Below are positions 15,578-53,815 of a stretch of 64,000 nt of DNA, piece by piece. A model generated the notes under the pieces. It worked only from the letters and a program-made list of their open reading frames with translations, was not told the origin of the DNA and ran no database searches. Origin of the DNA: Thermoanaerobaculia bacterium (GTDB taxonomy: Bacteria; Acidobacteriota; Thermoanaerobaculia; Multivoradales; Multivoraceae); contig JAJDUI010000014.1 of NCBI GenBank assembly GCA_022826745.1, positions 8,520-72,519 of the forward strand. Direction: 5' to 3'. Every line of letters begins with the position of its first letter. Within the stretch, counting starts at the first letter, position 1. The translations under genes were made by a program, and so were the position numbers.

Positions 15578-15770
15578 CCGACGCCCTCCAGCCCCTCCGG
15601 GCCGGAGGGGAGGGTCCACGGGGGCTGTCGGCAAGCGACGGCCGACACCCGCTCGTGAACCGACGCCCGACCGGAGCGCAGCCGACCGAAGCGAGCGCCC
15701 ACCCTACCTCCACCGAGAAAGCGCGAGCGGCCCCGGGGACCCTCCCCTCCGGACCGGAGAAGGCGGGTGC
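15578..15770. repeat. Structured interspersed element, copy A
   Basis: Imperfect ~33-bp inverted arms (~15591-15624 / 15731-15764) around core AGCGCAGCCGACCGAAGCGAGCGC (15675-15698), shared with copies B and C. Confidence 0.85.
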
Positions 15771-15800
15771 CACCGACGCCGCTACGCTGCACCGACGCCG

Positions 15801-17075
15801 CTAGTTCGCCGCGCTCTCCTCCGTGTACCGCCGCAGCTCGGCGCGGCCGACGACGAGGTGATGGACCTCGTCCGGGCCGTCCGCGATGCGCAGGGTCCGC
15901 TGGCCGGTGTACATGTCGGCGAGCGGGGTCCACTGCGAGACGCCGGTGGCGCCGTGCATCTGGATCGCCTGATCGATGATCTGGCAGGTGCGCTCGGGGA
16001 TCATCGCCTTGACGGCATGGACCCACACCCGCGCTTCGCGGTTACCCAGAACGTCCATCGCCTTGGCGGCGCGCAGGACCATGAGGCGCATCGCCTCGAT
16101 GTCGATACGGGCCCGCGACACGACCTCGATGTTCTTGCCGAGCTGGATGATCGGCCGGCCGAAGGCCTCACGCGACATGCCGCGCTTGACCATCAGGTCG
16201 AGCGCCTTCTCGGCCTGACCCACCGACCGCATGCAGTGGTGGATACGGCCCGGGCCCAGCCGGAGCTGGGAGATCTCGAAGCCGCGGCCCTCGCCGAGCA
16301 GGATGTTCTCCTTCGGCACGCGCACGTTGTCCAGCTTGATGTGCATGTGGCCGTGGGGGGCGTGGTCGTGCCCGAAGACCTTCATCGGTCCCAGGACGTT
16401 CACGCCCGGCGTGTCCATCGGCACCAGGATCTGGGACTGCTGGCGGTGCGCCGGTCCGCCCGGGCTCGTCTTGACCATGCAGATCATGATCTTGCAGCGC
16501 GGGTCGCCGGCGCCGGAGATGTAGTACTTCTCGCCCTGGATTAGCCACTCGTCGCCATCGAGGGTCGCGCGGGTGCCGATGTTCTTCGCGTCCGAAGACG
16601 CCAGGTTCGGCTCCGTCATGCCGAAGCAGGAGCGGATCTCGCCGTTCAGCAGGGGCTCCAGCCACTTCTCCTTCTGCTCCTCCGTGCCGACGCGCTTGAG
16701 CACCTCCATGTTGCCGGTGTCCGGCGCACTGCAGTTCATGCACTGCGAGGCGAGCGGGTTCTTGCCCAGTTCCTGGGCGATATAGGCGTAGTCGAGGTTC
16801 TTCAGGCCTTCGCCCGTCTCCGCGTCCGGCAGGAAGAAGTTCCACAGGCCCATCTCCCTGGCCTTGGCCTTGGCGCCGTCGAGCAGCTCCAGCTGCCCCT
16901 CGCCGTAGCTCCAGCGGTCCTCCCGCCCTTCGCCGCGGCGGTAGTACTCCTCGGTGATCGGCTCGACGTAGTCGGCCATGAAGTTCTTGACCTTCGTCAG
17001 AAGCGGCTTAGCCCCCTCGGACATCGAAAGGTCGTACAACTCGGCGTCGATGCCGAACGGGTCGAGATCGGGCAT
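15801..17075 (-). CDS. Acyl-CoA dehydrogenase
   Basis: NCSAPDTGNMEVL, CFGMTEP, RLGPGRIHHCMR, IQMHGA.G, RIADGPDEVH. Confidence 0.95.
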   Translation of the reverse strand: MPDLDPFGIDAELYDLSMSEGAKPLLTKVKNFMADYVEPITEEYYRRGEGREDRWSYGEGQLELLDGAKAKAREMGLWNFFLPDAETGEGLKNLDYAYIAQELGKNPLASQCMNCSAPDTGNMEVLKRVGTEEQKEKWLEPLLNGEIRSCFGMTEPNLASSDAKNIGTRATLDGDEWLIQGEKYYISGAGDPRCKIMICMVKTSPGGPAHRQQSQILVPMDTPGVNVLGPMKVFGHDHAPHGHMHIKLDNVRVPKENILLGEGRGFEISQLRLGPGRIHHCMRSVGQAEKALDLMVKRGMSREAFGRPIIQLGKNIEVVSRARIDIEAMRLMVLRAAKAMDVLGNREARVWVHAVKAMIPERTCQIIDQAIQMHGATGVSQWTPLADMYTGQRTLRIADGPDEVHHLVVGRAELRRYTEESAAN

Positions 17076-17388
17076 GGCTCTCTTGCTCCTTCTCCCAGAA
17101 AGTCAGGGCTCTGTGATTTGAGGTCGCGAAGCTATCGCAGCCGGCCGGCGGACGCCACAGCCGGGCGGCCCGGTCGCCGTTTCGGGCGGCCGCCTGATTC
17201 AAGAACCGGAATCCGGGATCCGAATCATGGATCCGCCGGATCCAGAGCTTCGTAGGAGATCCGTCCAGGACAGTGAATTGCCGTCCTGGTACGTCTGAGA
17301 GCCAACCGGCGTCCGAACTCGAAAAACCCGCGTGGAAACGACACCAAACGGCCCGACCGGGTGCTCGTCCGACCCCTGTCACAAGAAC

Positions 17389-17404
17389 TGGCATCCGCCT
17401 TGCT
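17389..17404 (+). promoter_or_regulatory. Sigma54 (-24/-12) promoter
   Basis: TGGCAT-CCGCC-TTGCT matches TGGCAC-N5-TTGCW with exact spacing, 36 nt upstream of the receptor start. Confidence 0.7.
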
Positions 17405-17440
17405 CAACCGACCTGTGCCCCACAACTGGAGGGAACTTCC

Positions 17441-20170
17441 GTGTTGTCACATCTTCAAACCGAGAACCGAAAAGACCGCATCGGCCTGAGCCGAAGCGCG
17501 GTCCTCGGTCTATGCGCCGCCCTGGCGCTTGTTTTCCTGGCGGTCCCATCGGCCGCTCAACTCACCGGTCGGTTGGCCGGACAGGTCATGGACGCCGACG
17601 GCACAGCGCTTCCCGGCGTCACGGTAACCGTCAACTCGCCCAACCTGATGGGCTCCCGAACCGATTTCGCGGACGCCGAAGGCGGCTTCAGCTTCCCCAG
17701 CCTGCCGCCGGGCGTCTACACCGTCGAAGCCGAGTTGGATGGCTTCATCCCGCAACAACGGACCGAGGTCGAAGTCCGACTGAACCGCGTCACGGAAATC
17801 CACTTCTCGATGCCGGCGGGCGAGTTCGGTGAAGAAGTGATGGTCGTCGCCGAAACTCCCGTAGTCGATCCTGAGCAGGTGTCGACCTCGCAGACGTTCG
17901 GCGCCGAGTACCTGAAGAAGGCCTCGATCGGCTCCGCGAACCGGAGCTACCAGAGTGTGCTGACCGACGTCGGCGGCGTCGCGGGCGGATCGAACCCAAA
18001 TGTGTTCGGCTCGACTCTGGGCGAAAACTCCTTCGTCGTGGACGGCGTGAACACGACGGACCCGGTCACTGCGACCTGGAACATCAACATGAACTTCGAC
18101 ACGGTCCAGGAGATCAACTTCGAGACCAGCGGATTCGAGGCTCGCTACGGAAACGCGACCGGCGGCGTGGTCAACGTCGTCACGAAGTCCGGCGGCAACT
18201 CGTTCTCGGGCAGTCTGGACGTGCGCTACCGCGACACCGACTTCAACACCAGCGGCGAACACTTCGACACGGACGACAACGTCGTCGAGTTCCAGGAGAC
18301 TGCCGCAACGCTGGGCGGCCCGATCCGCCGGGACGAACTCTGGTTCTTCGCCGCGGCCAACCCGGTGAGGTCGAAGAACACCCCCACCGAGTCGCCGGCC
18401 ACCCGCGACTTCGAAGGCATGAACCTCAACGGCAAGCTGACGTGGCAGGTCAACCCGGAGTGGCAGTTCACCGGCCGGTACATCGGCGAAGACGCAACGA
18501 TCACCAACGCCAACGCTTCCCGCTCCGTGGCGCCGGAAGCCACGCGCTACCAGGAGCAGCCGAAGACAATTCTCGGCGTGGACGCGCTCGGACTGCTGAC
18601 CTCGAACCTGCAGTGGCACATCAAGGCCGGCACGGTCCGCGGCGAGCTGAACTCGTTCCCGCAGAGCCGCGACTTCGACACGATCGGTCACGTCGACTCC
18701 TTCGGCGACGGCTCGCGTTCGGTGAACTACACGAACCAGCAGTTCTCGACCCGCGACCGGGACGACCTGACGACGAATCTGGTCTGGTTCACCGATGGCG
18801 CCGCGGGCGACCACCAAGTCGAGGTGGGCGTGGAGTACGCCAGCAACTTCTTCGCCAGCCAGAACAATGCCACCGGCGGCGGCTACTCGTTTGGCGACCG
18901 TTTCGGCGCGCCCTACACGCTCCTCTTCTCGCCCATCGAGTCGCCAGCCGAGAACGACGGCAGGCATTTCACCGCGTACATCCAGGACACGTGGCGCGTA
19001 CTGCCGAACCTGACGCTCAAGCTCGGTCTGCGCCACGATGAAGTCGCCTTCGAGAACGACATCGGCGACGAAGTGGCGGCCCTGTCCAAGCTGCAGCCGC
19101 GATTCGGAATCGCCTGGGATATCGGCGGCGACGCCAGGACAGTCGCTCGCGCAAACTGGGGCCGCTTCATGCACCCGAACGCCCTCACGCTGCCGAGCTT
19201 CGCGAGGGTCAACCAGTTCCCGACCGTCCGCTGGATCTCCTGCTCCACTTTCCGGGCCCAACTCGGCGCGAACTGCCGCGACGCGTACCCCGGTGAACAG
19301 ACAGTCGGCGGCCTGACCTTCTCGAACTGGATCGCCGACCCCGCGGGGTTCGATCCGAACGGCTGGTTCTACAACACGGTGTTCTCGAGTACCGCGAGCA
19401 GGATCTCGGCCGATCTCGAGCCGACCTACGCCGACCAGTGGAGCGTCGGCGTCGAACGGGAACTGACCCGACGCACATCGATCGGCCTGACCTACATCAC
19501 CAAGGAGACCCTGGACATCTTCGAAGACACCTGCAATGGCAACCTGCCGGCGCCGGCCGCCGGGGCGGACTGCGACTTCTACGTCATGGCGAACCTGCCG
19601 GTACTGGTGCGCGACTACAGCGGCTTCGTCCTCGACTTCGAGTCCCGCTTCACGGACTGGTTCCACGTTCTCGCTTCGTACACGAACTCCGAGTCCGAGG
19701 GAAACGTCGGCTACACGCAGAACGCCGGCGTTGACTTCGACATCTATCCGGACCACTTCGAGAACACGTACGGGTATCTCTCGGACCACCGCAGGCACCG
19801 GGTCAAGGTGAACGGCTTCGTCGATCTGCCGCTCGACTTCGGGCTGGCGGTCGAGGGTTTCTGGTCGTCCGCGGGCGTCTACGCGCCGACGGAAGCATCC
19901 GAGACCTACGGCCGTATCTTCACGGAGCGGCGCGGCAGCCGGGAAGCGAACGACCGCTACGGCATGGACGTCCAGCTATCGAAGGGCTTCGTCTTCGGAC
20001 GCGACCTGCGCTTCGAACTGATCGGCGCGGTGTTCAACGTCTTCGACGAAGAGCAGGTCACGACGGTCTGCACACGAGTCGAGGGTTGCGCGGGCGGCCT
20101 GGACCTGGATGCAGCCACGGCATACGTGCAGCCGCGGCGCTTCGAAGCGGGAATCCGTTTCGAGTTCTAG
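17441..20170 (+). CDS. TonB-dependent receptor with N-terminal carboxypeptidase-regulatory-like domain (Oar type)
   Basis: G.V.D..G..LPGVTVTV, VDGVN.TDP, GGVVNVVTKSGGN, AYIQDTWR, C-terminal GIRFEF; SD GGAGG before GTG. Confidence 0.92.
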   Translation: MLSHLQTENRKDRIGLSRSAVLGLCAALALVFLAVPSAAQLTGRLAGQVMDADGTALPGVTVTVNSPNLMGSRTDFADAEGGFSFPSLPPGVYTVEAELDGFIPQQRTEVEVRLNRVTEIHFSMPAGEFGEEVMVVAETPVVDPEQVSTSQTFGAEYLKKASIGSANRSYQSVLTDVGGVAGGSNPNVFGSTLGENSFVVDGVNTTDPVTATWNINMNFDTVQEINFETSGFEARYGNATGGVVNVVTKSGGNSFSGSLDVRYRDTDFNTSGEHFDTDDNVVEFQETAATLGGPIRRDELWFFAAANPVRSKNTPTESPATRDFEGMNLNGKLTWQVNPEWQFTGRYIGEDATITNANASRSVAPEATRYQEQPKTILGVDALGLLTSNLQWHIKAGTVRGELNSFPQSRDFDTIGHVDSFGDGSRSVNYTNQQFSTRDRDDLTTNLVWFTDGAAGDHQVEVGVEYASNFFASQNNATGGGYSFGDRFGAPYTLLFSPIESPAENDGRHFTAYIQDTWRVLPNLTLKLGLRHDEVAFENDIGDEVAALSKLQPRFGIAWDIGGDARTVARANWGRFMHPNALTLPSFARVNQFPTVRWISCSTFRAQLGANCRDAYPGEQTVGGLTFSNWIADPAGFDPNGWFYNTVFSSTASRISADLEPTYADQWSVGVERELTRRTSIGLTYITKETLDIFEDTCNGNLPAPAAGADCDFYVMANLPVLVRDYSGFVLDFESRFTDWFHVLASYTNSESEGNVGYTQNAGVDFDIYPDHFENTYGYLSDHRRHRVKVNGFVDLPLDFGLAVEGFWSSAGVYAPTEASETYGRIFTERRGSREANDRYGMDVQLSKGFVFGRDLRFELIGAVFNVFDEEQVTTVCTRVEGCAGGLDLDAATAYVQPRRFEAGIRFEF

Positions 20171-20180
20171 TAGCCATGTA

Positions 20181-20255
20181 GCCGTTCGCTAGCCCGTCAG
20201 TGGCCAGCGGACGGCCAGGGTCCGGCGTCTCAAAAGGGGCGAGGCGCCGGGCCCT
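20181..20255 (+). terminator. Tandem hairpins between convergent genes (probable terminator or 3' stabiliser)
   Basis: Stems 20181-20215 and 20217-20255 (the latter 15 bp with 2 G-U pairs on the + strand); no U-tract. Confidence 0.55.
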
Positions 20256-20793
20256 ATCCCACCTCCACGGCGGAAGCACGACTCAAGTCGCGCAGGCGGC
20301 CGGCCTGCTCCTCGCTCAGGCCGTGGATCCGCAACAACAACCGGCCGTTGGCGACGTGGTGATCCAGATCCGAAGCCCGGCCTCGGCCGCTCCGGATCCC
20401 TCGGCCAGGCAGCAGCCCACCTTCCCAGAGCACCCGCAGGACGGTCATCAGGATGAGCCCGAGCGCCGTGCCCTCGTACGTCACGACGCCTACCGGCGGA
20501 CCGGCGACGATCGACATGCCGCCGGTCGGCAGCGGGTAGGCCAGTGCAGTGCCGGCCGCCAGGCCGAAGGCGGTGAGGCCGCCGAGGACGGCGCCGGCCA
20601 GGGCGAACAGCAACACCCGGGATTTCGGCTTCGGCAGCGGCAGTTCGCCTTCTTCCAGCGGCGCCGGACTCCGCACTTCGACCTGCGAGGCCGCGACGCC
20701 CGACTCGAGCACCGCTTCGACGACGGCACGCACGTCCTCGACCCGCTCGAACACGGCCTCGACGACGAGAGGGTCCTGGGTGGCCGCGGTCAC
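20254..20793 (-). CDS. DUF3341/ActD-like subunit
   Basis: EVRSP.PL, two TM helices with YPLPTGGM..V...PVGVVTYE; follows the NrfD gene. Confidence 0.75.
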   Translation of the reverse strand: MTAATQDPLVVEAVFERVEDVRAVVEAVLESGVAASQVEVRSPAPLEEGELPLPKPKSRVLLFALAGAVLGGLTAFGLAAGTALAYPLPTGGMSIVAGPPVGVVTYEGTALGLILMTVLRVLWEGGLLPGRGIRSGRGRASDLDHHVANGRLLLRIHGLSEEQAGRLRDLSRASAVEVG

Positions 20794-22187
20794 GCAGCCC
20801 CTCCTCCGGGCACCGGTGACGCCGCCGCGGACGTCGGCGCGGCCTCGGAAGGCTGCCCGCTCTCGCCACCGCTCCCCGCGTGCCGCCAGCCTTCCCGCAT
20901 CTCCCACACGGAAACGATCGGCAGCAACTGGGTGAACGTGAAGTAGAGGCAGGCGAAGACGCCAACCGCCCCGATCATGATCCCCAGTTCCACCCAGCTC
21001 GGCATGTAGTCGCCGATGCTGTAGGCCAGCCGCGGCGTCGACAGGGCCGGCACGACGATCAGGAACCGTTCGAGCCACATGCCGACGAGTACGCCGCAGC
21101 CGACCAGCGCGGTCGGCAGCGGCCGCCGGCCGCGCGGGAAAGAGAGGACGGCGACCGGAATCACCAGGTTGACCACGACCATCGTCCAGAACGGGACCGC
21201 GAAGTCGCCGTGCAGCAGGACGTGGTGCACGTTCTTCTCGAACAGGTCGCCGCTGTACCAGACGGTCAGGTGCTCGGCGAACGTGAAGTAGCCCCAGACC
21301 AGGGACATCGTCACGAACAGGAGCCCCAAGTTGTTGAACACCCGGTCGGTCAGGAAGCGTTCGAGAGCGAGGCCGCGGCGTAGCAGCGCCATCGCGATCA
21401 TCAGCACCGCGATCCCGGAGAAGATCGCCCCGACGACGAAGTAGGGCCCGAAGATCGTGCTCTTCCAGCCCGGCGTCTGGGTCATCGCGAAGTCCCAGGA
21501 CACGATCGTGTGAACCGAGACGGCGACCGGGATGATCACGACGGCAAGAATGCGGATCCCCCACTCCAGGCTGTGCCATTGCTGCGCCGTGCCGCGCCAG
21601 CCGAGCGCCAGGACCGCGTAGAAGCGCTTCTTCAGGCCGGCCGCCGCCCGGTCCCGCATGACCGCCGCGTCCGGGATCAGCGGCAGGAACAGGTAGAGGG
21701 CGCTGCCGATGATGTAGGTCGTGATCGCGGCGATGTCCCAGACCAGCGGCGACCGGAAGTTGGGCCACAGCATCCGGCTGTTCGGGTACGGGATCATGTA
21801 GTAGAAGATCGCGACCCGGCCGAGGTGAATCAGCGGGAACAGGCCGCCGATCGCGAGCGCGAACAGGGTGATCGCCTCGGCCGAACGGGTCACCGGCCGC
21901 CGCCACTCCGCCTTCGTCACCCGCAGGATCGCCGAGATCAGCGTGCCGGCGTGGCTGATGCCGATCCAGAAGACGAAGTTGATGATGTAGAAGCCCCAGA
22001 ACACCGGCCGGTTGATGCCGGTGACGCCGATGCCGTTTGCGATCTGGTAGCCCCAGCAGTAGATGAAGACCAGCGCCAGCGCGCCGCTCGCGAGGGAACC
22101 GACGAGCAGACCCGGACGCCGGCGGTCGAGGCGGCCGAGCAGTTGGCCGTCGAGCGCGGCGGCCGAGGGCTGGGACTCCGCCGTCAC
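20790..22187 (-). CDS. nrfD: NrfD/ActC polysulfide-reductase-type membrane quinol-binding subunit
   Basis: WGFYIINFVFWIGISHAGTLISAILR, WRRPVTRSAE, WPNFRSPLVWD, SVHTIVSWDF. Confidence 0.93.
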   Translation of the reverse strand: MTAESQPSAAALDGQLLGRLDRRRPGLLVGSLASGALALVFIYCWGYQIANGIGVTGINRPVFWGFYIINFVFWIGISHAGTLISAILRVTKAEWRRPVTRSAEAITLFALAIGGLFPLIHLGRVAIFYYMIPYPNSRMLWPNFRSPLVWDIAAITTYIIGSALYLFLPLIPDAAVMRDRAAAGLKKRFYAVLALGWRGTAQQWHSLEWGIRILAVVIIPVAVSVHTIVSWDFAMTQTPGWKSTIFGPYFVVGAIFSGIAVLMIAMALLRRGLALERFLTDRVFNNLGLLFVTMSLVWGYFTFAEHLTVWYSGDLFEKNVHHVLLHGDFAVPFWTMVVVNLVIPVAVLSFPRGRRPLPTALVGCGVLVGMWLERFLIVVPALSTPRLAYSIGDYMPSWVELGIMIGAVGVFACLYFTFTQLLPIVSVWEMREGWRHAGSGGESGQPSEAAPTSAAASPVPGGGAA

Positions 22188-22885
22188 TCGGCTGGCTCCC
22201 TCCACTCGGAACCGCTCAGGTAGACGACGCCCGGCCGGGTATCCAGATCGCCCAGCAGGCTGAACGCCCGCGGCGACTCGGCCCACTTCGACACTCCGCT
22301 GTCCGGATCCTCGAGATCGCCGAACGTGATCGCCTTCGTCGGACACGACTGCTGGCAGGCGGTCCGGATGTCGCCGTCCGCGACCTCCCGGTCCTCCTGG
22401 GCGGCCTCGTCCTTGCCGGCCTGAATACGCTGGACGCAGAACGTGCACTTCTCCATCACCCCGCCCGGCCGAACGCTGACGTCCGGGTTCAACTGGGAGT
22501 CGAGCGGCGCCGGGAACTCGGCGTCGAACCAGTTGAAGACGCGCACCGTGTACGGGCAGTTGTTGGCACAGAACCGCGTGCCGATGCAGCGGCTGTACAC
22601 CATCGCGTTCAGCCCTTCCGGGTTGCGGTACGTCGCGTAGACCGGGCAGACCGGCTCGCAGGGCGCGGCGCCGCACTGCTGGCAGAGCACCGGCATGAAG
22701 CGCGTGCGGACGTTCGGGAACTCGCCCTCGTAGTAGCGCTCGATCCGCAGCCAGTGCATCGCCCGGCCCTCGCGGGCCTGTTCCTCGCCAACCGTCTGGA
22801 TGTTGTTCTCGGCCGCGCAGGCGACGACGCAGGCCTCGCAGCCCGTGCAGCGGTCGAGATCGATGGCCATGCCCCAGCGCGTCAT
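22184..22885 (-). CDS. 4Fe-4S dicluster protein (ActB2/QrcC/NrfC-like)
   Basis: CTGCEACVVAC, CQQC...PCEPVCP, RCIGTRFCANNCPY, MEKCTFC, CQQSCP. Confidence 0.95.
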   Translation of the reverse strand: MTRWGMAIDLDRCTGCEACVVACAAENNIQTVGEEQAREGRAMHWLRIERYYEGEFPNVRTRFMPVLCQQCGAAPCEPVCPVYATYRNPEGLNAMVYSRCIGTRFCANNCPYTVRVFNWFDAEFPAPLDSQLNPDVSVRPGGVMEKCTFCVQRIQAGKDEAAQEDREVADGDIRTACQQSCPTKAITFGDLEDPDSGVSKWAESPRAFSLLGDLDTRPGVVYLSGSEWREPAE

Positions 22886-25173
22886 GCCTTTCCTCCATCG
22901 TGCGGCGCCCAGCCGACCGGAATCTCCTCGGCCTGCCGCAGGCCGCGGCCGTAGATCACCGGCCGTTCGCTGCGGCGCGGCCGGCGCAGCCGCTCGACCC
23001 GCACCCGAACACCGCTCTGCGCGAACGCTCCGACACCAGCGACCCGGCGGTTCGCGTCCAGCAATACGTTCACATTGACACCGCGGCCGCGCGCGTAGCG
23101 GCCGTAGTCCGCGTAGCCGCCGCCGACCGGCACCCCCACACAGCCCGGCCGCACCGTGGGAAGGACGATGACCGGCAGGTCGATCTCGACCGCGGTTCCG
23201 GTCAGCCGCACGATGTCGCCGGTGTGGATGCCGAGACGGTCCGCGTCCTCGGTGGCGACTTCGGCCCAGGACCCCCACATGACGGTCGACAGCGGGTCTG
23301 GCAACTCCTGCAGCCACGGCCGGTTCGCGCCCCGGCCGTCGCCGCTTTTCACCGACTCGAACGGAATCAGCGTGAAGGACTCCACGCCCGCGGGAGCTGC
23401 GGGCGCAGGCATGGAAGCCGGATCGGGAAGCCCGGCAGGCGCGCCGTCCCCGTCGACCTGAGCCGACCGAACGGGCGCGCGCCGCATTCCCGCCGTTCCG
23501 ACCAGGCCGCCGGCGTCCGTCGTCCGCCGCACGAACTGACGCGCGTTCAGGGCACCCGCGATCAGGGATTCGGGCAGCGCGCCGGCATCCTCGGCATCGG
23601 CTCTCGTCGCGGTGAAGACATCGCTGAGCGAGGCCTCGACCGCCTCCTGGAAGCCCGGCCAGGGCAACGCACTGCCGGCGGCCGCGGCAAGCGCCAGGGC
23701 CACGTCGCCCGGATGCCGCGCCTCACCCCGCGGGGCCACAGTCGGCGATGCGATGAGCAGCGCCGGCATTCCGCGCACCGGGTCCGGCTCCACCGCCTGG
23801 AAGCGTTCCAAGTCGGTCTGGATCGGGAGCACGACATCGGCCCGCAGCGCCGTGTCGTCGAAGAAGGCGGAGAGAGCGATCACCGTGCCGGCGCCCTCGA
23901 AGGCAGCCTCGAACCCCGGCATCCCGTGGAGCGGATCGGCCTCCGACACGACGAGCACGCTCGACTCGCCAGCGCCGTCCAGCCGGTCCGCCAGCGCCGC
24001 CGGTGACACGGCCGCGTCGGCATCGCCGGCCAGCCGGTCTTCGAAGCCGAAGTCGACCCCGGCGAAGACCCCGCCCTCACGGCCCACCGCGCCGAGCAAC
24101 AGGTTGAGCGCGAGCGCGGCGGCGCCCGCGGCGACACCGTTTTCGCCGTCGAGCGCCGAGCCGCCGACCATCACCAGGGGCCGGCGGCTGCGCGCGAGCT
24201 CGGCGGCGAGGCGTTCGATCCGGCTCGCGTCGATACCGCAGCGTTCGGCCGTCGCCGTCAGGTCGGGCGGCGCTTCGGGAAACAGCATCTCGTAGGCCGC
24301 CCGCTCCTCCTCCCCGACCGTTCCCGAGCCGAGCAGGAGACCGGCGAGGCCGCGCGCGAAGAAACCCTCGCTGCCCGGGCGCACCGGCAGCCAGTCGTCC
24401 GCGTTCGCCGCGGTCAGCGAGTGGCGCGCCTCGACCTGCACCAGCTTGCCGCGCCGGTCGGCGGTCAGCTCGGCCCAGGCGCCTGCGAAGTGGGCGGCGC
24501 TCCGCCAACCGTCGAGGAAGGGCGCGCCGATGCTGAGCACGTAGTCGGCTCGGGCCATGTCATACGCCGGCCGGCAAGCCTCTCCGAAGGTCAGGCGAGC
24601 CGCCTCACGCTCCACAACCAGGTCGGCTGATTGCCAGTGCACCGGCGGCGGCGCGCCGACCACGGCCGCCAACCGTCGCCACAGGCCAAGCAGCGGCCCC
24701 GATGGCGCGCCGGACACAACGGTCGTCGCCTCCGGAGCGGCCATGATCGCCGTCGCCGCGGACTCGAGCGCTTCCTCCCACGACACCGGCTCCAGTTCGC
24801 CCGAAGCGCCGCGCCGCATCGGCTCCGTCACCCGGTCCGGGTGATACAGCTCCTGGAGGGCCGAGTGCCCAAGGGCGCAAACGCCGCCCGCGTTGACGAA
24901 GCCTGACGGCAACCCCTCGATCTTCTTCGCCAGCCGGTCGACGGTCCGCACCTCGATCTCGCAACCGGCGCCGCACTGCCCGCAGATCGACCGCCGCCAC
25001 ACGGACGCGCCCGGCAGGGCGGTGCTCCGCCGCGCCGGCGACTCGATCCACTCCTCGTCCCGGCGGCGGCAGCCCTGCAGCACCGCCACGCCGGCGGCCG
25101 CGTAGACCTTGAAGAAGTCCCGCCGCCCGATCGTGACCCGCGGCTCGCCGCGCTTACTCTCGTTGCCGCTCAT
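22882..25173 (-). CDS. Molybdopterin-oxidoreductase-family subunit (ActB1/QrcB-like), Tat lipoprotein
   Basis: GRRDFFK...LQGC; CGQCGAGC...C; LYHPDR; TAANADDW; NRPWLQELPDPL. Confidence 0.9.
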   Translation of the reverse strand: MSGNESKRGEPRVTIGRRDFFKVYAAAGVAVLQGCRRRDEEWIESPARRSTALPGASVWRRSICGQCGAGCEIEVRTVDRLAKKIEGLPSGFVNAGGVCALGHSALQELYHPDRVTEPMRRGASGELEPVSWEEALESAATAIMAAPEATTVVSGAPSGPLLGLWRRLAAVVGAPPPVHWQSADLVVEREAARLTFGEACRPAYDMARADYVLSIGAPFLDGWRSAAHFAGAWAELTADRRGKLVQVEARHSLTAANADDWLPVRPGSEGFFARGLAGLLLGSGTVGEEERAAYEMLFPEAPPDLTATAERCGIDASRIERLAAELARSRRPLVMVGGSALDGENGVAAGAAALALNLLLGAVGREGGVFAGVDFGFEDRLAGDADAAVSPAALADRLDGAGESSVLVVSEADPLHGMPGFEAAFEGAGTVIALSAFFDDTALRADVVLPIQTDLERFQAVEPDPVRGMPALLIASPTVAPRGEARHPGDVALALAAAAGSALPWPGFQEAVEASLSDVFTATRADAEDAGALPESLIAGALNARQFVRRTTDAGGLVGTAGMRRAPVRSAQVDGDGAPAGLPDPASMPAPAAPAGVESFTLIPFESVKSGDGRGANRPWLQELPDPLSTVMWGSWAEVATEDADRLGIHTGDIVRLTGTAVEIDLPVIVLPTVRPGCVGVPVGGGYADYGRYARGRGVNVNVLLDANRRVAGVGAFAQSGVRVRVERLRRPRRSERPVIYGRGLRQAEEIPVGWAPHDGGKA

Positions 25174-25180
25174 CCCGTCC

Positions 25181-25711
25181 TCACCGGTGGCAGGCCAGGC
25201 AGTCGTCGCTGGCTTCGTTCTCGCGGTGACACTCGACGCACCAACCCATGTCGGCGACGTTGCGCACCGGCTCGGCCACCGTCATCGAAGCCACGTCGCC
25301 ATGACAGGTCAGGCACTCGATACCGGCGCGCGCATGGGCCCGATGGTTGAAGTGGACCATCGCCGAGTCCGGGATCACGTTCACCTTCGCCCACAGGATC
25401 GGCTCCCGATTCTCATTCGCGAGCATCACCTTCTGGACTTCGGGATGGTCGGGAATCTCCCTCCGATGACAACCGGCACAGGCCTGCACCGACGGCATCC
25501 CCGCGTGCACTCCCTCCTCCGCACCCCGATGGCAACGAACGCACTCCAGCCCGGCCTCGATATGAACCTGGTGGTCGTAACCAATCGGCTGTTCAGGAGT
25601 AGGCAGATTCTGCCTCGGCCCACAGCCCAAGACCACGATCGCGAAGACCCCAGCCAAACCGACAGCCAACCGCCGACCCCCAACCCCAGCAGCCCAGCGG
25701 CCATCGACCAC
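25181..25711 (-). CDS. Pentaheme cytochrome c (ActA-like) lipoprotein; start approximate
   Basis: Five CxxCH motifs (CVRCH, CAGCH, CLTCH, CVECH, CLACH), QPI.YDH..H, VHFNH..H, MGWC; lipobox VVLGC. Confidence 0.9.
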   Translation of the reverse strand: MVDGRWAAGVGGRRLAVGLAGVFAIVVLGCGPRQNLPTPEQPIGYDHQVHIEAGLECVRCHRGAEEGVHAGMPSVQACAGCHRREIPDHPEVQKVMLANENREPILWAKVNVIPDSAMVHFNHRAHARAGIECLTCHGDVASMTVAEPVRNVADMGWCVECHRENEASDDCLACHR

Positions 25712-25900
25712 CGACGCCGTCCAGCCCGGGCTGGCGCCGGATGGCCGTCCCAGCGGGCTGGAGGCAAGCGACTGCCCATCCGTTCCCGCAACCACGGCCA
25801 ACACGCAGCGCAGCCGACCGAAGCGAGCGCGGCCGCCCCCCTCACCCAGAGAGCGCGAGCGTCCGCAGGGACGGCCATCCGGCGTCAGCCCGGGCGGGTA
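25711..25900. repeat. Structured interspersed element, copy B
   Basis: 28-bp arms 25724-25751 / 25868-25895 (one G-T pair); core 25807-25830; 12-bp direct repeat ACCGACGCCGTC at 25710-25721 and 25906-25917. Confidence 0.85.
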
Positions 25901-25932
25901 CAGGAACCGACGCCGTCTCACTCCGCGCGGCC

Positions 25933-26544
25933 TCAGACCTCGCGGATCCGCTGATACGAAGGGACTTCCTGCAGCCGCGTCCAGTAGCGCCGCACGTTGT
26001 CGCCGAAGTCGTCGATGCCGAGCGACTCCGCCAGCTTCAGGCCGTAGCCGACGCAGATGTCGGCGATCGTGAGGCGGTCGCAGCACAGAAAGTCGCGGCC
26101 GTCCGAGGTCGCCGACTCGACGAGCCGCAACCGGCCCAGGAACCACCGGCGGTAGTCCTCCGCGACCTGCGGCACCCTCCGCTCCTCGGGCTCCAGCCGC
26201 GTGTAGCGGAGGAACAGCGTCTGCGGGAACGTCAGCGTCGCGTCGCTGTAGAACAGCCAGTTCAGGTACGCGCCGTAATCCGGGTCATCCACGTCGACGG
26301 CGAGCGGGGTCGGACCGTAACGGTCGACCAGGTACTTCGCGATTCCCGAGGACTCCGTCATGTGGACGTGGCCGTCGATCATGTAGGGAACCGTGCCGAG
26401 GAGGTTGGTGCCAAGGTAGTCCTTCTTGAACACGCGCGGCGGGAAGGGCAGGACGTGCAGGTCGTAGTCGATGCCCATCTCCTCCAGCGTCCAGACGGCA
26501 CGCAGCGACCGGGCGCCCTGGCAGTGGTAGAGCTGAATCGTCAC
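25933..26544 (-). CDS. Glutathione S-transferase family protein
   Basis: LYH..GARS.R..W.LEE, N.LGTVP, ESSGI..YL, TIADI. Confidence 0.92.
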   Translation of the reverse strand: MTIQLYHCQGARSLRAVWTLEEMGIDYDLHVLPFPPRVFKKDYLGTNLLGTVPYMIDGHVHMTESSGIAKYLVDRYGPTPLAVDVDDPDYGAYLNWLFYSDATLTFPQTLFLRYTRLEPEERRVPQVAEDYRRWFLGRLRLVESATSDGRDFLCCDRLTIADICVGYGLKLAESLGIDDFGDNVRRYWTRLQEVPSYQRIREV

Positions 26545-27350: not shown

Positions 27351-27374
27351 CCTCCTCCGGCAACCCTCGGGCTG

Positions 27375-35661: not shown

Positions 35662-37185
35662 ATGCAGCGAAGTGGACGCCGGCCTCACGGCCGGCGCGTC
35701 TTTCCGGCCGCCTGCAGCGGCAGCCGGCGGGGGCGCCGGCGCACCCAGTGTGCGGGCGCTTTCGTGGCGCTGCTGGCCTTTCCTGTCGCGGCGCTGGCGC
35801 AAGCGGCGGCTGAGTCCGGGTCGGTAGCGACGTGGCCCGGTTTCCGTGGACCTGACGGCATTCCCGTTTCGGACAACGATCGCCTGCCGATCAACTGGTC
35901 CACGACCGAGAACGTCGAATGGAGCGTGGACGTCCCTGGTTCCGGCTGGTCGTCGCCGGTCGTCGTGGGCAACGCGGTCTTTCTGACCACGGCGGCCAGA
36001 CCGACCGAGGCGACCAAGCGGCCGGAGTTCGGCACCGAGTACAGCAACGAGTTCATGCGCGAACTCCGCGAACAGGGGCTTCCCTGGGAGGAAGTCCTCA
36101 AGCGCCACGACGAACGCTTCATCGAGTTTCCCGACGAGGTCGACCTCGACTACCAGTTGATCGCGTACTCGCTCGAGGACGGCGCCGAACTCTGGAAACG
36201 CACCTTCTTCTCGGGACCACCGCCGGGCGGCCGCCACTCGAAGAACACGTTCGCCTCCGAGACGCCGGTGACCGACGGCGAGACGATCTTCGTCTACATC
36301 ACCGGCCTCGGTCTCTGGGCCTACTCACTGGACGGTGACCTGCGCTGGGAGCGCCGGCTCGATCAGTTCCAGATCTACATGGACTTCGGGACCGGCGGTT
36401 CGCCCGCCCTGACCGACGACCTGGTCCTCATCCTGAACGACAACCAGGAGCACCCGTTCCTGGCCGCCTTCTCCAAGCTGGACGGACGCGAGATGTGGCG
36501 CTCGGCCCGTGGACGGCTGGCCGCTCCGCATGCCCCCAACCACCGAACCTCCTGGAGCACGCCGTTCGTCTGGCGGCACGACGAACGAACCGAGATCGTC
36601 GCGCTCGGCCCCTACACCGCGATCAGCTACGACACGATGGGCCGGGAGCTGTGGCGGCTGACGCGGCACTCACTGCTGCCGGTGCCGACGCCCTTCGCCT
36701 ACGAGGGCCTGCTCTACGTGACGTCGGGCGTCCACGGCGACCAGAACCGCCCGATCACCGCGATCCTGCCGGGGGGCTCCGGCGACCTGACGCCGGGCGA
36801 GGACGAAACGAGCAGCGACTTCGTCGTCTGGAACGACAACCGGGCCGGCACCTACATCCCTACTCCCGTGCCGTACAAGGGCTCGCTGTGGGTGGTCTAC
36901 GACCGGGGCATCTTCGCCCGCTACGACGCGGCCACGGGGGAACGGCTCTACCGGTCGCGGATCAGCGACTCGAACGGCCACTTCACGACCTCGCCCTGGG
37001 CCTACCGCGACCGCATCTTCGCGACCGACGAGGCCGGCACGACCTTCGTCTTCGGCACCGGCGAGGAGTTCGAGCAGCTCCACGCGAATCCGCTGGACGA
37101 GATGACGTTGGCCTCCCCGGCCCTGGCCGGCGACCGGCTGGTCACGCGGACGCGGACGAAGCTGTACAGCATCCGGGAGGACTGA
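35662..37185 (+). CDS. PQQ-binding-like beta-propeller repeat protein
   Basis: WPGFRGP, WSTTENVEW, PGSGWSSPVV, ASETPVTDG, SWSTP, ASPA; ATG lies 7 nt after TAGTAT. Confidence 0.9.
   Translation: MQRSGRRPHGRRVFPAACSGSRRGRRRTQCAGAFVALLAFPVAALAQAAAESGSVATWPGFRGPDGIPVSDNDRLPINWSTTENVEWSVDVPGSGWSSPVVVGNAVFLTTAARPTEATKRPEFGTEYSNEFMRELREQGLPWEEVLKRHDERFIEFPDEVDLDYQLIAYSLEDGAELWKRTFFSGPPPGGRHSKNTFASETPVTDGETIFVYITGLGLWAYSLDGDLRWERRLDQFQIYMDFGTGGSPALTDDLVLILNDNQEHPFLAAFSKLDGREMWRSARGRLAAPHAPNHRTSWSTPFVWRHDERTEIVALGPYTAISYDTMGRELWRLTRHSLLPVPTPFAYEGLLYVTSGVHGDQNRPITAILPGGSGDLTPGEDETSSDFVVWNDNRAGTYIPTPVPYKGSLWVVYDRGIFARYDAATGERLYRSRISDSNGHFTTSPWAYRDRIFATDEAGTTFVFGTGEEFEQLHANPLDEMTLASPALAGDRLVTRTRTKLYSIRED
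35723..35752 (+). repeat. REP-like palindrome
   Basis: GCCGGC-N6-GCCGGC-GCACCCAGTGTG; 22 nt identical to 53592-53613. Confidence 0.7.
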
Positions 37186-47096: not shown

Positions 47097-47184
47097 GGTC
47101 GCGCAGCGTACTCCAGCGGCCTGGCGCGCTCATCCAGGCCGGCGACCGCCTCCTCCACCGGCTGCTAGTCTCCGAAGGGTTGCC

Positions 47185-49520: not shown

Positions 49521-49523
49521 CCC

Positions 49524-50990
49524 GTGGAATCGAAACCGCATCAAGACCCGGCCGAGACGGGCGCCAAGCAGCGGCTGCTGCATTCCTCGATCAGCGCCTA
49601 CGGCTCGATGTTCGTGCGGCTGCTGCTCGCCTTCGCTGCCCGTGCTCTCCTGGCCCGGCTCATCCTGCCGGACGTCCACGGACTCTTCGCGCTCGCCCTG
49701 CAGTTCGTCGTCATGGCCTCGGCGATCCGCGACGTGGGCCTGACGCACCACCTGATGCGCGACCCGCGCGAGTCCTACGGCACCGTCCTGGCCTGGAGCG
49801 TCGGCGTCGGCAGCGCCATGGCGGTCCTCCTGCTCGCTCTCGCGAACGTCTTCTCCTACCTGAATCCGGACCTGCCCGGCGTACTGCGGGCGATGGCGAT
49901 ATGGATCGTCATCGACGCCGTCATCATGGTCTACCGCACCTTCTTCGAGCGGCGGCTTCGGATCCGTGAGATCGCCGGCTTCGAGATTCTGCGCAGCCTG
50001 GTGTACGGCCTGATCGCGGTCGGCCTCGCCCATCTCGGCGCCGGCGTCTGGGCCTTCGTCGGCGGAGAGCTGCTGGCCTCCGCTCTCTTCGCGCTCCTGT
50101 TGCTGTGGCGGGCGCGCGGCCAGGTGCCGCTGGCAGTCGACTGGCAGAGACTCCCCAACCTGATCAGAGCGAGCCGCTACCTGTTCGTCGTGTGGGCCGC
50201 GAGCCAGGTCTTCCACCGCGTCGACATCTACTTCATCGAGATCTTCTCGACCACGACCTCCGTCGGTTACTACGAGGCGGCCTACTACTTCGCCTTCCTG
50301 GTCGCGCTGACCGTGACCCCGAGGCCGCTGCTGCCGGCGCTGGTCGAGTTTCGCGAGAACGCCGCGGAGTTCGCGGAAACGCTGCGTCTGGGCACCCTCG
50401 CCTTCCTCGCCGGAATCGTCGTCTCGGCCTACTTCCTGTTCTTCAATGCCGAGAAGGCGGTCGAACTGGTGCTCGGTCCCGAGTGGGCCGGCACGGTTCC
50501 GTTGCTTCGCGTCCTCTGCCTCGTGCCCCTGATCGACGTCTTCACCACCACCGGCGGCGAAGCGCTCAAGGTACGGAACCGTGACCGCCTCTGGCTGACC
50601 ACCGTCGTGCTGAACATGCTCGCGATCGTCGGTTTCGGCTTCTTCTTCACCTACCTTTGGGGCCCCATCGGCATGGCCTGGGCGAACTTCCTGCGCGTCG
50701 GCAGCCTGTTGATGTTCTTCAAGGTGCTCGGCATCTTCGCGGGCCGGCGGCGGCGGCTGGTGGGCAGCCTGGCCCAGGTCTACCTGCTGCCGCTCCCCTT
50801 CTTCGTGGCTGCGGCGGCGCTGCTGCCGGCGGGAAGCTGGGGTCGGCTGCTCGCCAGCGTCGCGGCGGCGGCGCTCGGCGGCGGTCTGCTGGCGCTTCGC
50901 TTCCTGCCCGACTACCGGCGGTTCTTCCGGCGTGCGCAGACCGCGCCGGCCGGCATGACCGGCGACCCGGACAGCGGAACGCCTTCGTGA
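49524..50990 (+). CDS. Oligosaccharide flippase (Wzx-like)
   Basis: LARLILP..HGLFA, many TM helices, VGYY, LGPEW...VPLL. Confidence 0.85.
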
Positions 50991-52540
50991 CGGACCGCCG
51001 GACGCTGCGACTCCTCGGTGCGTCCGTGGCGGCGCTGCCGTTGCTGACCCTCCTGTTCCTTCCGATTCGCACGATCGACGACGCGTTCATCACGTTCCGG
51101 TATGCCCGCAACCTGGCTTCGGGCAACGGCCTCGTCTTCAACCTCGGCGAGCGGGTCGAAGGGGTCACGAGCCTGTCGTGGACCCTGCTGCTCGCGGCAG
51201 TCGAGACGCTTCGCCTGCCGGTCGAGCCGGCGGCGTTCGCGCTCGGCGTGGCCTTCGCGCTGCTGGCGCTGCGCGAGTCGTACCTCCTCGGCCGTGGCCT
51301 CGGCGCCTCCGCCGGCGCCTGCCTCGCCGCGGTCGCGCTGGTGGCGGTCCACGGCCGCTTCTGGCTCGTCGCCGGCAACGGACTGGAGGGCGGGCTGTTC
51401 GCGTTTCTGGCCGTCCTCGTCGCGCGCAAGACGATCGAGGAAGCAGACGCCCGGTTGATCGGAGTCCTCCTGGGGCTGCTGTTCATGACCCGGCCCGAGA
51501 GCCTGCTCGTCCTGCTGGTCGTCCTCGGCTACCAGGTGCTCGCGAAGGGCGCCGCCGACGAGAGAGCCGGCGTCGTCCGCCGCGCCAGCCTGATCGCCGT
51601 GGCGGCCGCGGTCGTCCTGGGGGCCGTGACGATCTGGCGGCTCGCCTACTACGGCGCTCCGCTGCCGAACTCGGTGGCCGCCAAGTCCGCGCTCTCGGCG
51701 GGGCTGGACACACTGCTGGCGAACCTCGGCCCGGGTCTCCTGTACACCGTCCGCTTCGAGATCGCGCATGCGCCGCTGATCCTCGGCGCGGCCATCGCCC
51801 TTATCCTCGCTCCGAAAGCGAAGGCCCTCTGGTTCTGCCTGCTCCTCGTAGCGGCGGAGCTGCCGGCCGTTTTCGTCAACGGTGGTGACTGGATGCCTCA
51901 CTACCGCCTGCTGACCGTGTTCGCGCCGGTCCTGGCGGCTCCGCTGGCGGTCTGCCTCTCGCGAGCGTTCGAGGACTGGGACACGCCAGGCTCCGCGAGA
52001 CGGCGCTCAGCCTGGGTGCTCGCCCTGCTGACCGTGAGTGCCGTCGTCATGCTCAGCCGCAGCCCCTGGGAGGCCACGCCCGGCCCCCGCTTCACCTTCC
52101 ACCCGATCACGAGCTGCTACCAGTTCATGGCGACGCGCCTGAAGCCCCACCTGGCGTCCGACGACATCGCCGCCGCCGAGGCAGTCGGGCTGTTCGGCTG
52201 GATCCTCGACGAAACCACGATTCACGACCCCCTCGGCCTGACCTCCGCCCACCACGCCCGCCACGGCGACTACCACCTGAACTGGGGCAAGACGGACTAC
52301 GACCACCTCCACCAGGTCCGCCCCGCCGTCCTCGTGCTCCACGAGGGCTCGGTCGTGACCCCCGGGAAGATCGACCGCGGCACCGGCGGCCGCTTCGCCC
52401 GCGACTACTCCGCCTGGTTCGTCAGCCAGCAGCCGCCCTGCGCGCCGTACCGGCTGATCGTCTACATCGACAACGACCGGCTCGACCGGCTCCGACCCGC
52501 GCTCGACGGCCTGACGATCGAGCCGTTGCCGGCCGGCTAG
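50987..52540 (+). CDS. GT-C-type membrane glycosyltransferase (AftB-like)
   Basis: [35 protein letters not shown]...K, GGDWMP.YR, DPLGLT. Confidence 0.78.
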
Positions 52541-52546
52541 CGCAGC

Positions 52547-53488
52547 TCACGCGGCCGGCAACCGCCGACGGAGCCAGATCGAGCCGAAGTGGGTGTCGTA
52601 GTCCTCGACCTCGACCGGGCGGTAGCCGGGAATCGTCCGTTCCAGGAAGGGCTCGTCGAAGTGGCGGATCATCGGCGCCGACAGCAGCAACTCGAACTCC
52701 CGGTTGAAGCTCAGGAAAGCCTGGAGGACCATGGCCTCCGTGCGGTAGAGCGGCCACTTGGCGCGGAAGATGTACTGCTCGGCCGGATACGGCGTGTTGT
52801 ACGGAAAGTGAATGTCGTGAACGTGAACCACGACGCCCGGCCGCAGCCGCGGCAGCACCTCGAGAAAGAGAAACGCAACGTCGCCGCCGAGCTTCAGCAC
52901 GTGGGTCGAATCGATGAACAGCACGTCGCCGGCTTCCAGAGCCTCGAAGAGCCCCAGGTCCGCCGCCTCCACCTTCGAGACCACCGCATGGACGGCGGGC
53001 TCGCGCAGCTCGTTCAGCCGCCCGGTCGGGAACGGGTCGACGCAGGTCATCTCACACCCGCGACCGTCACGGCCGTTCGCCGCCGCAGCAAGCCACGCGT
53101 AGTAGGTCGAAAGACCGGACCCGATCTCGACGTAACGCGCCGGCCGGAGATCCCGCACCATGAGGTACGTCGTCAGAGCGTCGATCACCGGGAAGCCGGG
53201 GCCGTAACCCAGCTCCCGGATCTCGCCGTGCGGCGGCAGTTTCCCGAACTCACCGCCATGAGTCTCGACCAGAGCTTCCAGAAGCGATTTCATCGCCTCC
53301 AGGTCGTAGTCGACACCCACCAGCTCGCTCGGCCGGTCCCAGGACTCCCGGGAAGCCGCGACCTCCGACAGCACCGGCAACGGCGAATAGAAGTCTGCCG
53401 TACGCGCTACGTTCCACCCCAACTTGCGCAACGCAGCGAACAGGGCCGCGTGTAGCCGCCGATAGATCGTCCTCAACACCTTCACCAT
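52547..53488 (-). CDS. Class I SAM-dependent methyltransferase (Methyltransf_24-like)
   Basis: FYSP.P, EIGSG.ST, DVLFIDSTH, HVHDI.FP. Confidence 0.9.
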   Translation of the reverse strand: MVKVLRTIYRRLHAALFAALRKLGWNVARTADFYSPLPVLSEVAASRESWDRPSELVGVDYDLEAMKSLLEALVETHGGEFGKLPPHGEIRELGYGPGFPVIDALTTYLMVRDLRPARYVEIGSGLSTYYAWLAAAANGRDGRGCEMTCVDPFPTGRLNELREPAVHAVVSKVEAADLGLFEALEAGDVLFIDSTHVLKLGGDVAFLFLEVLPRLRPGVVVHVHDIHFPYNTPYPAEQYIFRAKWPLYRTEAMVLQAFLSFNREFELLLSAPMIRHFDEPFLERTIPGYRPVEVEDYDTHFGSIWLRRRLPAA

Positions 53489-53583
53489 CAGACGCCGACG
53501 ATAGCCCGTCCGGCGACCAAGGAGCGAGGCTTCGCCTCGCGCGTCTATCCCGGGCGACGCCGCTTCGCAGCATCGCCCGTCAG

Positions 53584-53613
53584 GCCGGCGAGGGCGCCGG
53601 CGCACCCAGTGTG
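53584..53613 (+). repeat. REP-like palindrome abutting element copy C
   Basis: GCCGGC-GAGGGC-GCCGGC-GCACCCAGTGTG. Confidence 0.7.
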
Positions 53614-53615
53614 AA

Positions 53616-53815
53616 CCGACGACGTCCAGCCTGCGGCGGGGTCCGGAGGGGAGGGTCCCAGCGGGCTAGAGGCCAGCGACTGCCGAGAGCGCACGGCCAA
53701 CCACAGCCGCCCGGAGCGCAGCCGACCGCAGCGAGCGCCAGGTCCCTCCATCCACCACGAGGGCGCAAGCGTCCGTCTGGGACCCTCCCCTCCGGACCCC
53801 GCCGCAGGCGGGTGC
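53616..53815. repeat. Structured interspersed element, copy C
   Basis: Perfect 32-bp arms 53629-53660 / 53778-53809; core 53715-53738. Confidence 0.85.

Follow-up and report, generated by a model that had tools for sequence, protein, structure and literature searches.

The stretch analysed here (the window) comprises 64,000 nucleotides (nt) of forward-strand DNA from a Thermoanaerobaculia bacterium of the family Multivoraceae, phylum Acidobacteriota (assembly GCA_022826745.1, contig JAJDUI010000014.1, positions 8,520 to 72,519). It lies inside contig C8 of a 4.39-Mb genome that consists of 38 contigs, has a G+C content of 68.6% and is 96.7% complete. The window contains three copies, denoted A, B and C, of a non-coding element of about 190 base pairs (bp) whose single strand folds into a stem of 34-38 bp (P1) that ends in a tight three-way junction, from which two helices of 8-9 bp (P2 and P3) emerge. 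Each copy lies shortly behind the stop codon of a gene on the opposite strand, and numerous related copies are scattered over the genome. The parts of the three copies and the adjacent features are listed below.

15578..15770, plus strand: copy A, whole element (sequence and alignment; covariance model R1, 161.7 bits)
15588..15623, plus strand: copy A, 5' arm of P1 (30/34 modelled pairs Watson-Crick)
15624..15728, plus strand: copy A, three-way-junction core (P2, 15624-15632 with 15681-15689; P3, 15691-15698 with 15721-15728)
15731..15766, plus strand: copy A, 3' arm of P1
15773..15803, plus strand: copy A, right flank (CCGACGCC motif twice, at 15773-15780 and 15792-15799, then CTA at 15801-15803)
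15801..17075, minus strand: acyl-CoA dehydrogenase gene (stop 31 nt from copy A)
25711..25900, plus strand: copy B, whole element, with divergent 'type 2' arms
25721..25756, plus strand: copy B, 5' arm of P1
25757..25860, plus strand: copy B, core (P2, 25757-25765 with 25813-25821; P3, 25823-25830 with 25853-25860)
25863..25897, plus strand: copy B, 3' arm of P1
25906..25917, plus strand: copy B, right flank ACCGACGCCGTC, identical to the left 25710-25721
25933..26544, minus strand: glutathione S-transferase-like gene (stop 32 nt from copy B)
53584..53607, minus strand: hairpin resembling a repetitive extragenic palindrome (REP), with a GGGTGCGCCGG motif (a second, different repeat family)
53616..53815, plus strand: copy C, whole element (34/34 P1 pairs Watson-Crick)
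53626..53664, plus strand: copy C, 5' arm of P1
53665..53770, plus strand: copy C, core (P2, 53665-53673 with 53721-53729; P3, 53731-53738 with 53763-53770)
53773..53811, plus strand: copy C, 3' arm of P1
53831..55558, minus strand: TonB-dependent receptor gene (stop 16 nt from copy C)

A first-pass annotation, made from the letters of the window, had proposed these three copies, their coordinates, the shared orientation and the common layout, all of which hold. The mean column identity of the aligned copies is 78%, flanks included. The 5' arm of copy B differs from that of copy A in 16 of the 34 modelled stem columns and from that of copy C in 13, yet, much as had been claimed, it stays paired: 31/34 pairs are kept (30 Watson-Crick and one G·T; the remainder are two gap columns and one A·A), compared with 34/34 in copy C and 30/34 in copy A. 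The expected spacing of about 15-35 bp past the minus-strand stops is borne out by the measured distances of 31, 32 and 16 nt. The only amendment concerns the ends of the layout, where the left CCGACG-N3-T is a consensus feature of the flank, as is the weaker right CCGACGCC, neither being a copy-specific duplication. The 12-nt match between the two flanks of copy B is within the range given by unrelated flank pairs. The CTA to the right of copy A is the TAG stop of the acyl-CoA dehydrogenase gene and, on the strand of the receptor gene, the stop codon is followed by copy C and then by the REP-like hairpin. On neither strand does any of 200 dinucleotide shuffles fold as well as copy A (z -5.0 and -4.5). 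The receptor gene that has copy C at its 3' end is preceded by a cobalamin riboswitch (55762-55929, minus strand, 78.9 bits).

An iterated nhmmer profile search of the 38 contigs yields 47 matches, namely 46 full-length copies and a 53-nt fragment that is left out of all later counts. The full copies are spread over 20 contigs, on both strands, in agreement with the earlier expectation that three copies in the window imply many per genome. They are highly diverged from each other: among the 42 copies with complete flanks, the median pairwise identity is 65% and the maximum is 88%, with no pair above 90%. BLAST with copy C detects matches in 23/24 genomes of the same genus and in 0/16 genomes from 11 other families of the order. 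The covariance model R1 (83 copies, 213 positions, 51 pairs) matches 13/13 genomes of the genus at 150-205 bits, so that the scan of this and related genomes that had been suggested in the first-pass annotation does recover the family; since the search considers at most 19 candidates per genome, these matches are not copy numbers. The same model has no match in two other genera of the same family; in three other families it matches eight genomes, only weakly (scores of 38-77 bits in the five that were examined), and the remaining 99 genomes of the order sample are without a match. In a phylum-wide draw, 0/149 other genomes match at E ≤ 1e-5. A pattern scan of public genomes gives 115 loci, of which 63 contain the element, in records assigned to Candidatus Multivorans, Thermoanaerobaculia, Holophagales and Acidobacteria metagenome bins; the other 52 are chance matches that lack the element (e.g., in Sphingomonas and Paenibacillus records). 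The sequencing runs that contain this DNA are labelled as sponge, coral or marine metagenomes, and blastn finds no match in plasmid and phage collections. The comparison with Rfam, also suggested earlier, gives no match to the element: at the gathering score, only the cobalamin riboswitch is matched in the whole window and, for copy C at E up to 10, there is a single chance 17-bit match. Literature searches found no paper on this family, which does not by itself establish its absence from print. The element forms a new family of a broadly familiar kind, that of small intergenic palindromic repeats, and corresponds to no described family.

The evidence for the fold comes from covariation. Mutual information among 119 distinct copies, calculated with no structure assumed, forms three anti-diagonals, and the structure was written from this result, given that RNAalifold and a dynamic programming procedure of our own, applied to MAFFT alignments, left the interior noisy. 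The conserved branched core consists of 107 nt. At the foot of P1, CCAGCC pairs with GGCGGG around an A·G mismatch that is kept in 116/119 copies, and the middle of P1 shows up to four Watson-Crick pair types per position. P2 is GCUGGAGGC paired with GCCGACCGA and P3 is GCGAGCGC paired with GCGCGAGC. Within the genus, tandem G·A/A·G mismatches are usual in both short helices, alternating with Watson-Crick pairs; in P2, the tandem mismatch is replaced by U-A/C-G in 32-37 of the 119 copies. In the junction, P1 and P2 abut, P2 is followed by a single invariant A before P3 begins, and the gap between P3 and P1 is two bases. In an alignment of 78 distinct copies (A2), 86.1% of the cells are paired vs 74.6% in shuffled alignments, 34/51 pairs change on both sides vs 22.3 in shuffles, and the covariation score is 0.314 vs 0.111 in shuffles and 0.04-0.08 with slid partners; 0/500 shuffles reach any of these pairing or covariation measures. 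These values bear out the statement of the first-pass annotation that structure rather than sequence is maintained. The 21 weaker copies from the five distant genomes (three other families, 38-77 bits) keep the fold as well, with 90.8% of the cells paired vs 60.9% in shuffles and 44/51 pairs changing on both sides, in an alignment that is fitted to the model. Their helices are built from other letters (e.g., CUCCGC/GCGGAG in P2 and GCGCCGG/CCGGCGC in P3) and the unpaired AAGCG, GCGCAG and CGCAG are unchanged. Covariation accordingly supports one fold, P1 plus a three-way junction with P2 and P3. With regard to the three outcomes on which the first-pass annotation had staked its claim, the search finds no described family, the copies far exceed the three in the window and the covariation is strong, all of which favours a real, undescribed family.

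Whether the folded strand is DNA or RNA, and which of the two strands folds, can be judged from the kinds of pairs and mismatches. The stems are almost purely Watson-Crick, with 79 G·U vs 72 A·C among about 3,900 cells in the genus set. In the distant set, the numbers are 41 and 18, respectively, and a MAFFT-based count for P1 gives 136 G·U vs 88 A·C (p 0.002). Functional RNAs usually tolerate G·U far more, and the observation that G·U is hardly commoner than A·C therefore leans towards a DNA hairpin; the fixed polarity towards the neighbouring gene, described below, leans towards transcription. Purine-purine mismatches (327 G·A/A·G cells) outnumber U·C/C·U cells (92), and the loops of the modelled strand are C-rich and G-poor (44% C and 25% G in loop L2; 44.5% C and 14% G in loop L3), so that the modelled plus strand appears to be the folding strand. 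Metatranscriptome contigs from four runs that align to 14800-26300 derive from related strains, mostly 90-99% alike, with none over copy B, and are uninformative on transcription of the element; the one contig that reaches the stop at 15801 runs on into the element-free form of the site seen in relatives.

The position of the element relative to genes is regular. Of the 46 copies, 45 have a gene on their 3' side, and 37 of these 45 genes are encoded on the opposite strand and have their stop at a distance of 0-74 nt from the 3' end of the element (p 1.5e-5), according to gene calls made with our own open reading frame (ORF) filter based on G+C content at third codon positions (GC3), which is crude and not a gene finder. 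In the remaining eight copies, the 3' gene is on the same strand, 72-309 nt away. The upstream side is mixed (23 genes on the same strand, 18 on the opposite strand, and none in four cases). The neighbour genes are unrelated housekeeping genes, such as those for acyl-CoA dehydrogenase, glutathione S-transferase-like protein, TonB-dependent receptor, ruvA and ruvB. TAG is the stop of 22/36 adjacent genes vs 37% genome-wide, and is often followed by CGGCG. Among 20 copies in distant relatives, a stop is found by the 3' end in nine and by neither end in 11; a stop by the 5' end occurs in only two, both of which also have a 3' stop. In about ten copies, identified by eye in the alignment, the element lies between the stop and a repeat of the second kind, a hairpin preceded by GGGTGCGC. 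Given the location 0-74 nt behind stops and, in about ten cases, in front of a REP- or terminator-like hairpin, transcripts of the upstream gene probably include the element in their 3' untranslated region (UTR), where it would appear as the reverse complement of the modelled strand. In contrast to this polarity towards the gene, the orientation of the copies shows no link to the sign of the local GC skew (20 agree, 24 disagree and two are near zero), and a connection with replication was rejected on these grounds. No terminator-like site (a G+C-rich hairpin with a U run) is found in 53300-54000 and no T run in the flanks; no conserved promoter-like motif is present in the 30 nt upstream of the copies, and a consensus scan around copy C reveals neither a promoter nor a U-tract terminator.

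An exception to the polarity rule is found on contig C33 of genome G000 (116770-118824). Here, one copy occupies the ruvA-ruvB spacer, 21 nt past the stop of ruvA, with 99 nt left to the start of ruvB, and a second, inverted copy, 88% identical to the first, lies 20 nt past the ruvB stop. Three such inverted pairs, about 1.1 kb apart, were considered as composite transposons and rejected because they enclose ordinary DNA in which no transposase is called: one encloses ruvB (with ruvA just outside) and another a 213-amino-acid ORF of no evident transposase kind.

The flanks carry their own signal. The left-flank motif CGACG(A/C)C-N-T is present in 65-80% of 115 copies, and a weaker CCGACGCC follows GGCGGGTG-N3 on the right. 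The longest word shared by the two flanks averages 5.22 within a copy vs 5.25 between copies (115 copies), that is, the own flanks of a copy are no more alike than those of other copies, which indicates that there is no copy-specific target duplication; this comparison has little power when copies are old and the target is strict. Either the motif is a strict target or it belongs to the unit itself. The possibility that it generally marks gene ends was considered and rejected, given that GCGTCGG is found downstream of 43/2,737 stops and upstream of 42/2,737 starts.

Comparison of orthologous sites, among which the first-pass annotation had called for a search for empty ones, shows that the element can be retained, reduced to a remnant or absent. 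Among 16 comparable copy C loci in other species, five are full, five retain stubs (the outer stem or one arm) and six are empty; in the empty form, as found in G041 and G004, the left motif is still present once. At locus A, 30 loci comprise 14 full copies, three partial or interrupted ones, about eight stubs (by eye), three cleanly empty sites, one site with unrelated sequence (L132) and one cut by a contig end. Some of the full locus A copies have B-type arms on an A-type core and are thus mosaic. Among the locus A orthologues (L126-L155), arm types and P2 variants occur in mixed combinations across species, which suggests exchange between copies. In genome G013, four tandem units with a period of about 205 bp (L229, 5196-6030, minus strand) share one motif between neighbours; their cores are near-identical and the arms are chimeric, with mismatched arms within a unit, an arrangement that fits unequal crossing-over of two parent copies. 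No other genome matches the 870 nt on the left side of copy A (14700-15570), and gene order breaks there. A recombination hot spot is nevertheless unsupported, since the large insertions at locus C in other genomes are not beside an element. At locus C of G005 (L164), the element is 96% identical to copy C, with only 63% identity at third codon positions of the receptor gene, which suggests a recombination boundary near the element. Two locus A orthologues from genomes G023 and G052 with differing arm types (L151, about 1400-1475, and L154, about 1434-1510) contain the same REP-like insert of about 75 nt with two small hairpins, by which P3 is interrupted in its 3' strand.

Among orthologous copies, the rate of change is close to that of third codon positions (82-94% vs 80-91% identity at locus A). 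In three orthologue sets, the varying columns number 12/102 paired vs 26/96 unpaired, 7/102 vs 19/96 and 13/102 vs 39/96 (Fisher p 0.007, 0.011 and 1e-5), so that changes are two to three times rarer in paired than in unpaired columns. Most of the changes that do affect a pair break it and are not compensated (8/10, 6/7 and 7/10).

The search for an enzyme that could mobilise the element was negative throughout. The first-pass annotation had noted none in the window, and none is found near the other copies: when 437 ORFs located within 2.5 kb of 167 element matches are clustered, only orthologous housekeeping groups emerge, and the sole cluster of a mobile type, an IS3-like group of five, looks incidental. 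No TnpB/IscB nuclease or IS110 recombinase is found among the neighbours. Of the two tyrosine recombinases in the genome, neither comes near the integron-integrase cut-off (67.5 bits for the best TIGR02249 match vs a required 265), as is also the case in all 14 control genomes. A parent insertion sequence with the same ends is not found in this genome, nor are split halves of the element around a gene; other genomes were not searched exhaustively for such a parent.

The suggestion of the first-pass annotation that the element might belong with REPIN-type repeats and flank a Y1 transposase or RAYT gene (a REP-associated tyrosine transposase) did not hold up. Genes of the Y1_Tnp family are found in 25/42 genomes of the genus, and several copy-rich genomes lack them (e.g., G006, G018 and G023). 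At the Y1 loci of six relatives, nhmmer at E 0.01 finds the element in 0/6. All six loci carry GGGTGCGC/GCGCACCC motifs, in 4/6 on both strands and in arrays. Because the GGGTGCGC repeat surrounds the Y1 genes of the relatives, it is this repeat, and not the element, that looks like the REP partner of the RAYT-like genes, and thus like the true REP of the genus. This second family has the form GGGTGCGC(C/G)GG followed by one to three G+C-rich hairpins, with examples in the window at 53584-53607 and 35736-35746 (both minus strand). Its motif occurs 288 times in this genome, and GGTGCGC is found within 60 nt behind 178/2,737 stops vs 27/2,737 stretches before starts.

In its general logic, the element resembles MITEs (transposable elements of miniature size that carry inverted repeats) and REPINs, and each resemblance has limits. 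A REP is an imperfect palindrome of no more than about 20-40 nt in which a 5' tetranucleotide is conserved, and a REPIN consists of two inverted units. Similarly to these, the present repeats are numerous, short, non-coding intergenic palindromes, mostly behind gene ends, in which compensating changes keep the hairpin and no target duplication is seen; unlike them, the element is about 190 bp long and contains the branched core instead of such palindrome units, does not flank the Y1 genes of the genus and shows strong polarity towards the upstream gene. With MITE-like repeats, such as Correia/NEMIS, ERIC and bcr1 of Bacillus cereus, it shares the length range of 100-200 bp, inverted arms, lack of coding capacity, dozens of copies, occupied and empty sites (loci A and C), probable co-transcription and a long stem that could be a cleavage site or make RNA more stable. 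In the arms, 91-94% of the cells are paired, with conserved CCAGCC/GGCGGG ends and variable inner parts, as would be expected of terminal inverted repeats. In contrast to these repeats, the arms vary between copies and yet stay paired, there are no near-identical copies, no duplication beyond the consensus motif and no parent insertion sequence found in this genome, and the core is a three-way junction with tandem G·A pairs. The attC sites of integrons are also similar in that structure prevails over sequence, an unpaired feature of the stem is conserved, the site would act as a folded single strand and the location is directly behind an ORF in a fixed polarity; the element differs in the lack of an integrase, cassette arrays and GTT/AAC cores, and in the large internal core that is absent from attC. 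The hairpin-plus-U-run organisation of an intrinsic terminator is not seen in the element.

The interpretation favoured here, with a probability of about 45%, is that the element is an old, now immobile, non-autonomous palindromic element that used to be recognised in the form of a folded single strand and today resides in 3' UTRs. The branched fold would have been the form recognised by a trans-acting enzyme, none of which is found in this genome, and this enzyme would have placed the copies next to a motif of the CGACG(A/C)C type, a short distance past stop codons and with a single polarity. The copies, which are seen to shrink to short hairpins through internal deletions, would now be fixed, in slow decay and passively transcribed along with the genes that they follow, with the long G+C-rich stem possibly acting as a barrier at the 3' end of the RNA. 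This scenario accommodates the large, widespread family, the covarying fold, the full, stub and empty sites, the nearly Watson-Crick-only stems, the lack of coding capacity or a linked gene and the constraint on paired columns at resident sites. Several observations weigh against it. The genome, 96.7% complete, has no match to Y1_Tnp, PF07282 (TnpB-type), IS110 (DEDD_Tnp_IS110, PF01548) or RVT_1; there is no copy-specific target duplication, there are no recent copies and no transposition event is directly seen. The polarity follows the gene and not replication, which is unusual for elements moved as single-stranded DNA at replication forks, and the gene calls behind this polarity are crude. 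The covariation of P2 and P3 across order-level divergence fits long-term selection on a functional fold equally well. Finally, the strands conflict, in that the tandem G·A motifs and the slight G·U excess favour the strand antisense to the neighbouring gene and not the one expected in the mRNA.

The principal rival, which appears unlikely on balance and still deserves serious consideration, is that the element is instead a cis-acting structured RNA module of 3' UTRs or a family of small RNA genes, in which the three-way-junction fold would be maintained by the work of the RNA itself at each locus. Such an RNA might serve at the 3' end or in stability, be bound by a host protein or slow down transcription in one direction only; in the last case, Rho might be loaded through the C-rich loops of the modelled strand when a transcript enters the gene in the antisense direction. 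The strict position and polarity behind stops, retained in the distant relatives and independent of GC skew, argue for a role in RNA, as do the deep P2/P3 covariation, stems that change less than loops among orthologues, overall evolution about as slow as that of third codon positions, and, on the modelled strand, C-rich, G-poor loops and tandem G·A pairs in both short helices. What tips the balance away is that G·U is scarcely more frequent than A·C in the genus, that no promoter-like motif precedes the copies and neither promoter nor U-tract terminator surrounds copy C, that the best-fitting strand is antisense to the gene that would transcribe it, that many orthologous sites are empty or reduced to stubs next to an intact gene, and that no Rfam family matches. 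A further reading is still less likely, and can be put forward only as speculation: instead of leftovers of a transposon, the elements would be host-kept, direction-locked structured modules of gene ends that spread like mobile DNA, in which the junction, the tandem G·A pairs and the invariant AAGCG, GCGCAG and CGCAG dock a putative protein, making each copy an asymmetric insulator. The transcript of the upstream gene would pass as a G-rich RNA ending in a protective stem, and opposing transcripts would expose the C-rich, G-poor loops that stop them.

Two more specific mechanisms of mobility, both of them very unlikely, can be compared with the favoured reading of an immobile palindromic element. 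Movement as folded single-stranded DNA by a Y1 (HUH) transposase such as RAYT, in the manner of REPIN or IS200/IS605 elements, would explain the long hairpin with the conserved A·G mismatch at its foot, the conserved motif 5' of this foot and the absence of a target duplication, and Y1_Tnp genes do exist in the genus. Nevertheless, this genome holds 46 copies without a Y1 match and the copy-rich G006, G018 and G023 are in the same situation, the Y1 loci examined contain arrays of the GGGTGCGC repeat instead of the element, the orientation is independent of GC skew, and the branched core has no known counterpart in REP or REPIN sequences. The chances are just as slim for a folded-DNA recombination site of a tyrosine recombinase, attC-like or Xer-dependent, with CGACG(A/C)C as the crossover core. 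A degenerate direct repeat of one consensus does flank the palindrome, with one copy left at empty sites and a single motif shared between the units of the tandem array; the polarity behind ORFs is fixed, structure is kept with variable sequence, and gene order breaks at copy A. Against this stand the lack of an integron integrase and of a visible core of the GTTRRRY type known from integrons, the occurrence of single copies over 20 contigs with no cassette arrays, the fit of the G013 array (chimeric arms, near-identical cores) to unequal crossing-over, and the location of the large locus C insertions away from the element.

Altogether, the element represents a strongly supported non-coding fold detected from sequence alone, with covariation of three helices at two levels of divergence, and it occurs abundantly in Acidobacteriota of an uncultivated group from sponge and coral metagenomes. 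One genus harbours two separate small-repeat systems, one tied to Y1 genes and the other, the present element, with no visible enzyme. The covariance model allows annotators to mask or label the sites, and the empty, stub and full states at shared sites can serve as markers of strain and species history. If the element is a fossil of mobile DNA, there would have been an enzyme that read a branched folded strand and placed DNA past stop codons with a single polarity; if the element works as RNA, dozens of housekeeping genes would carry a new kind of 3'-end module; and, if it is an insulator, it would represent a new class of cis-regulatory elements.

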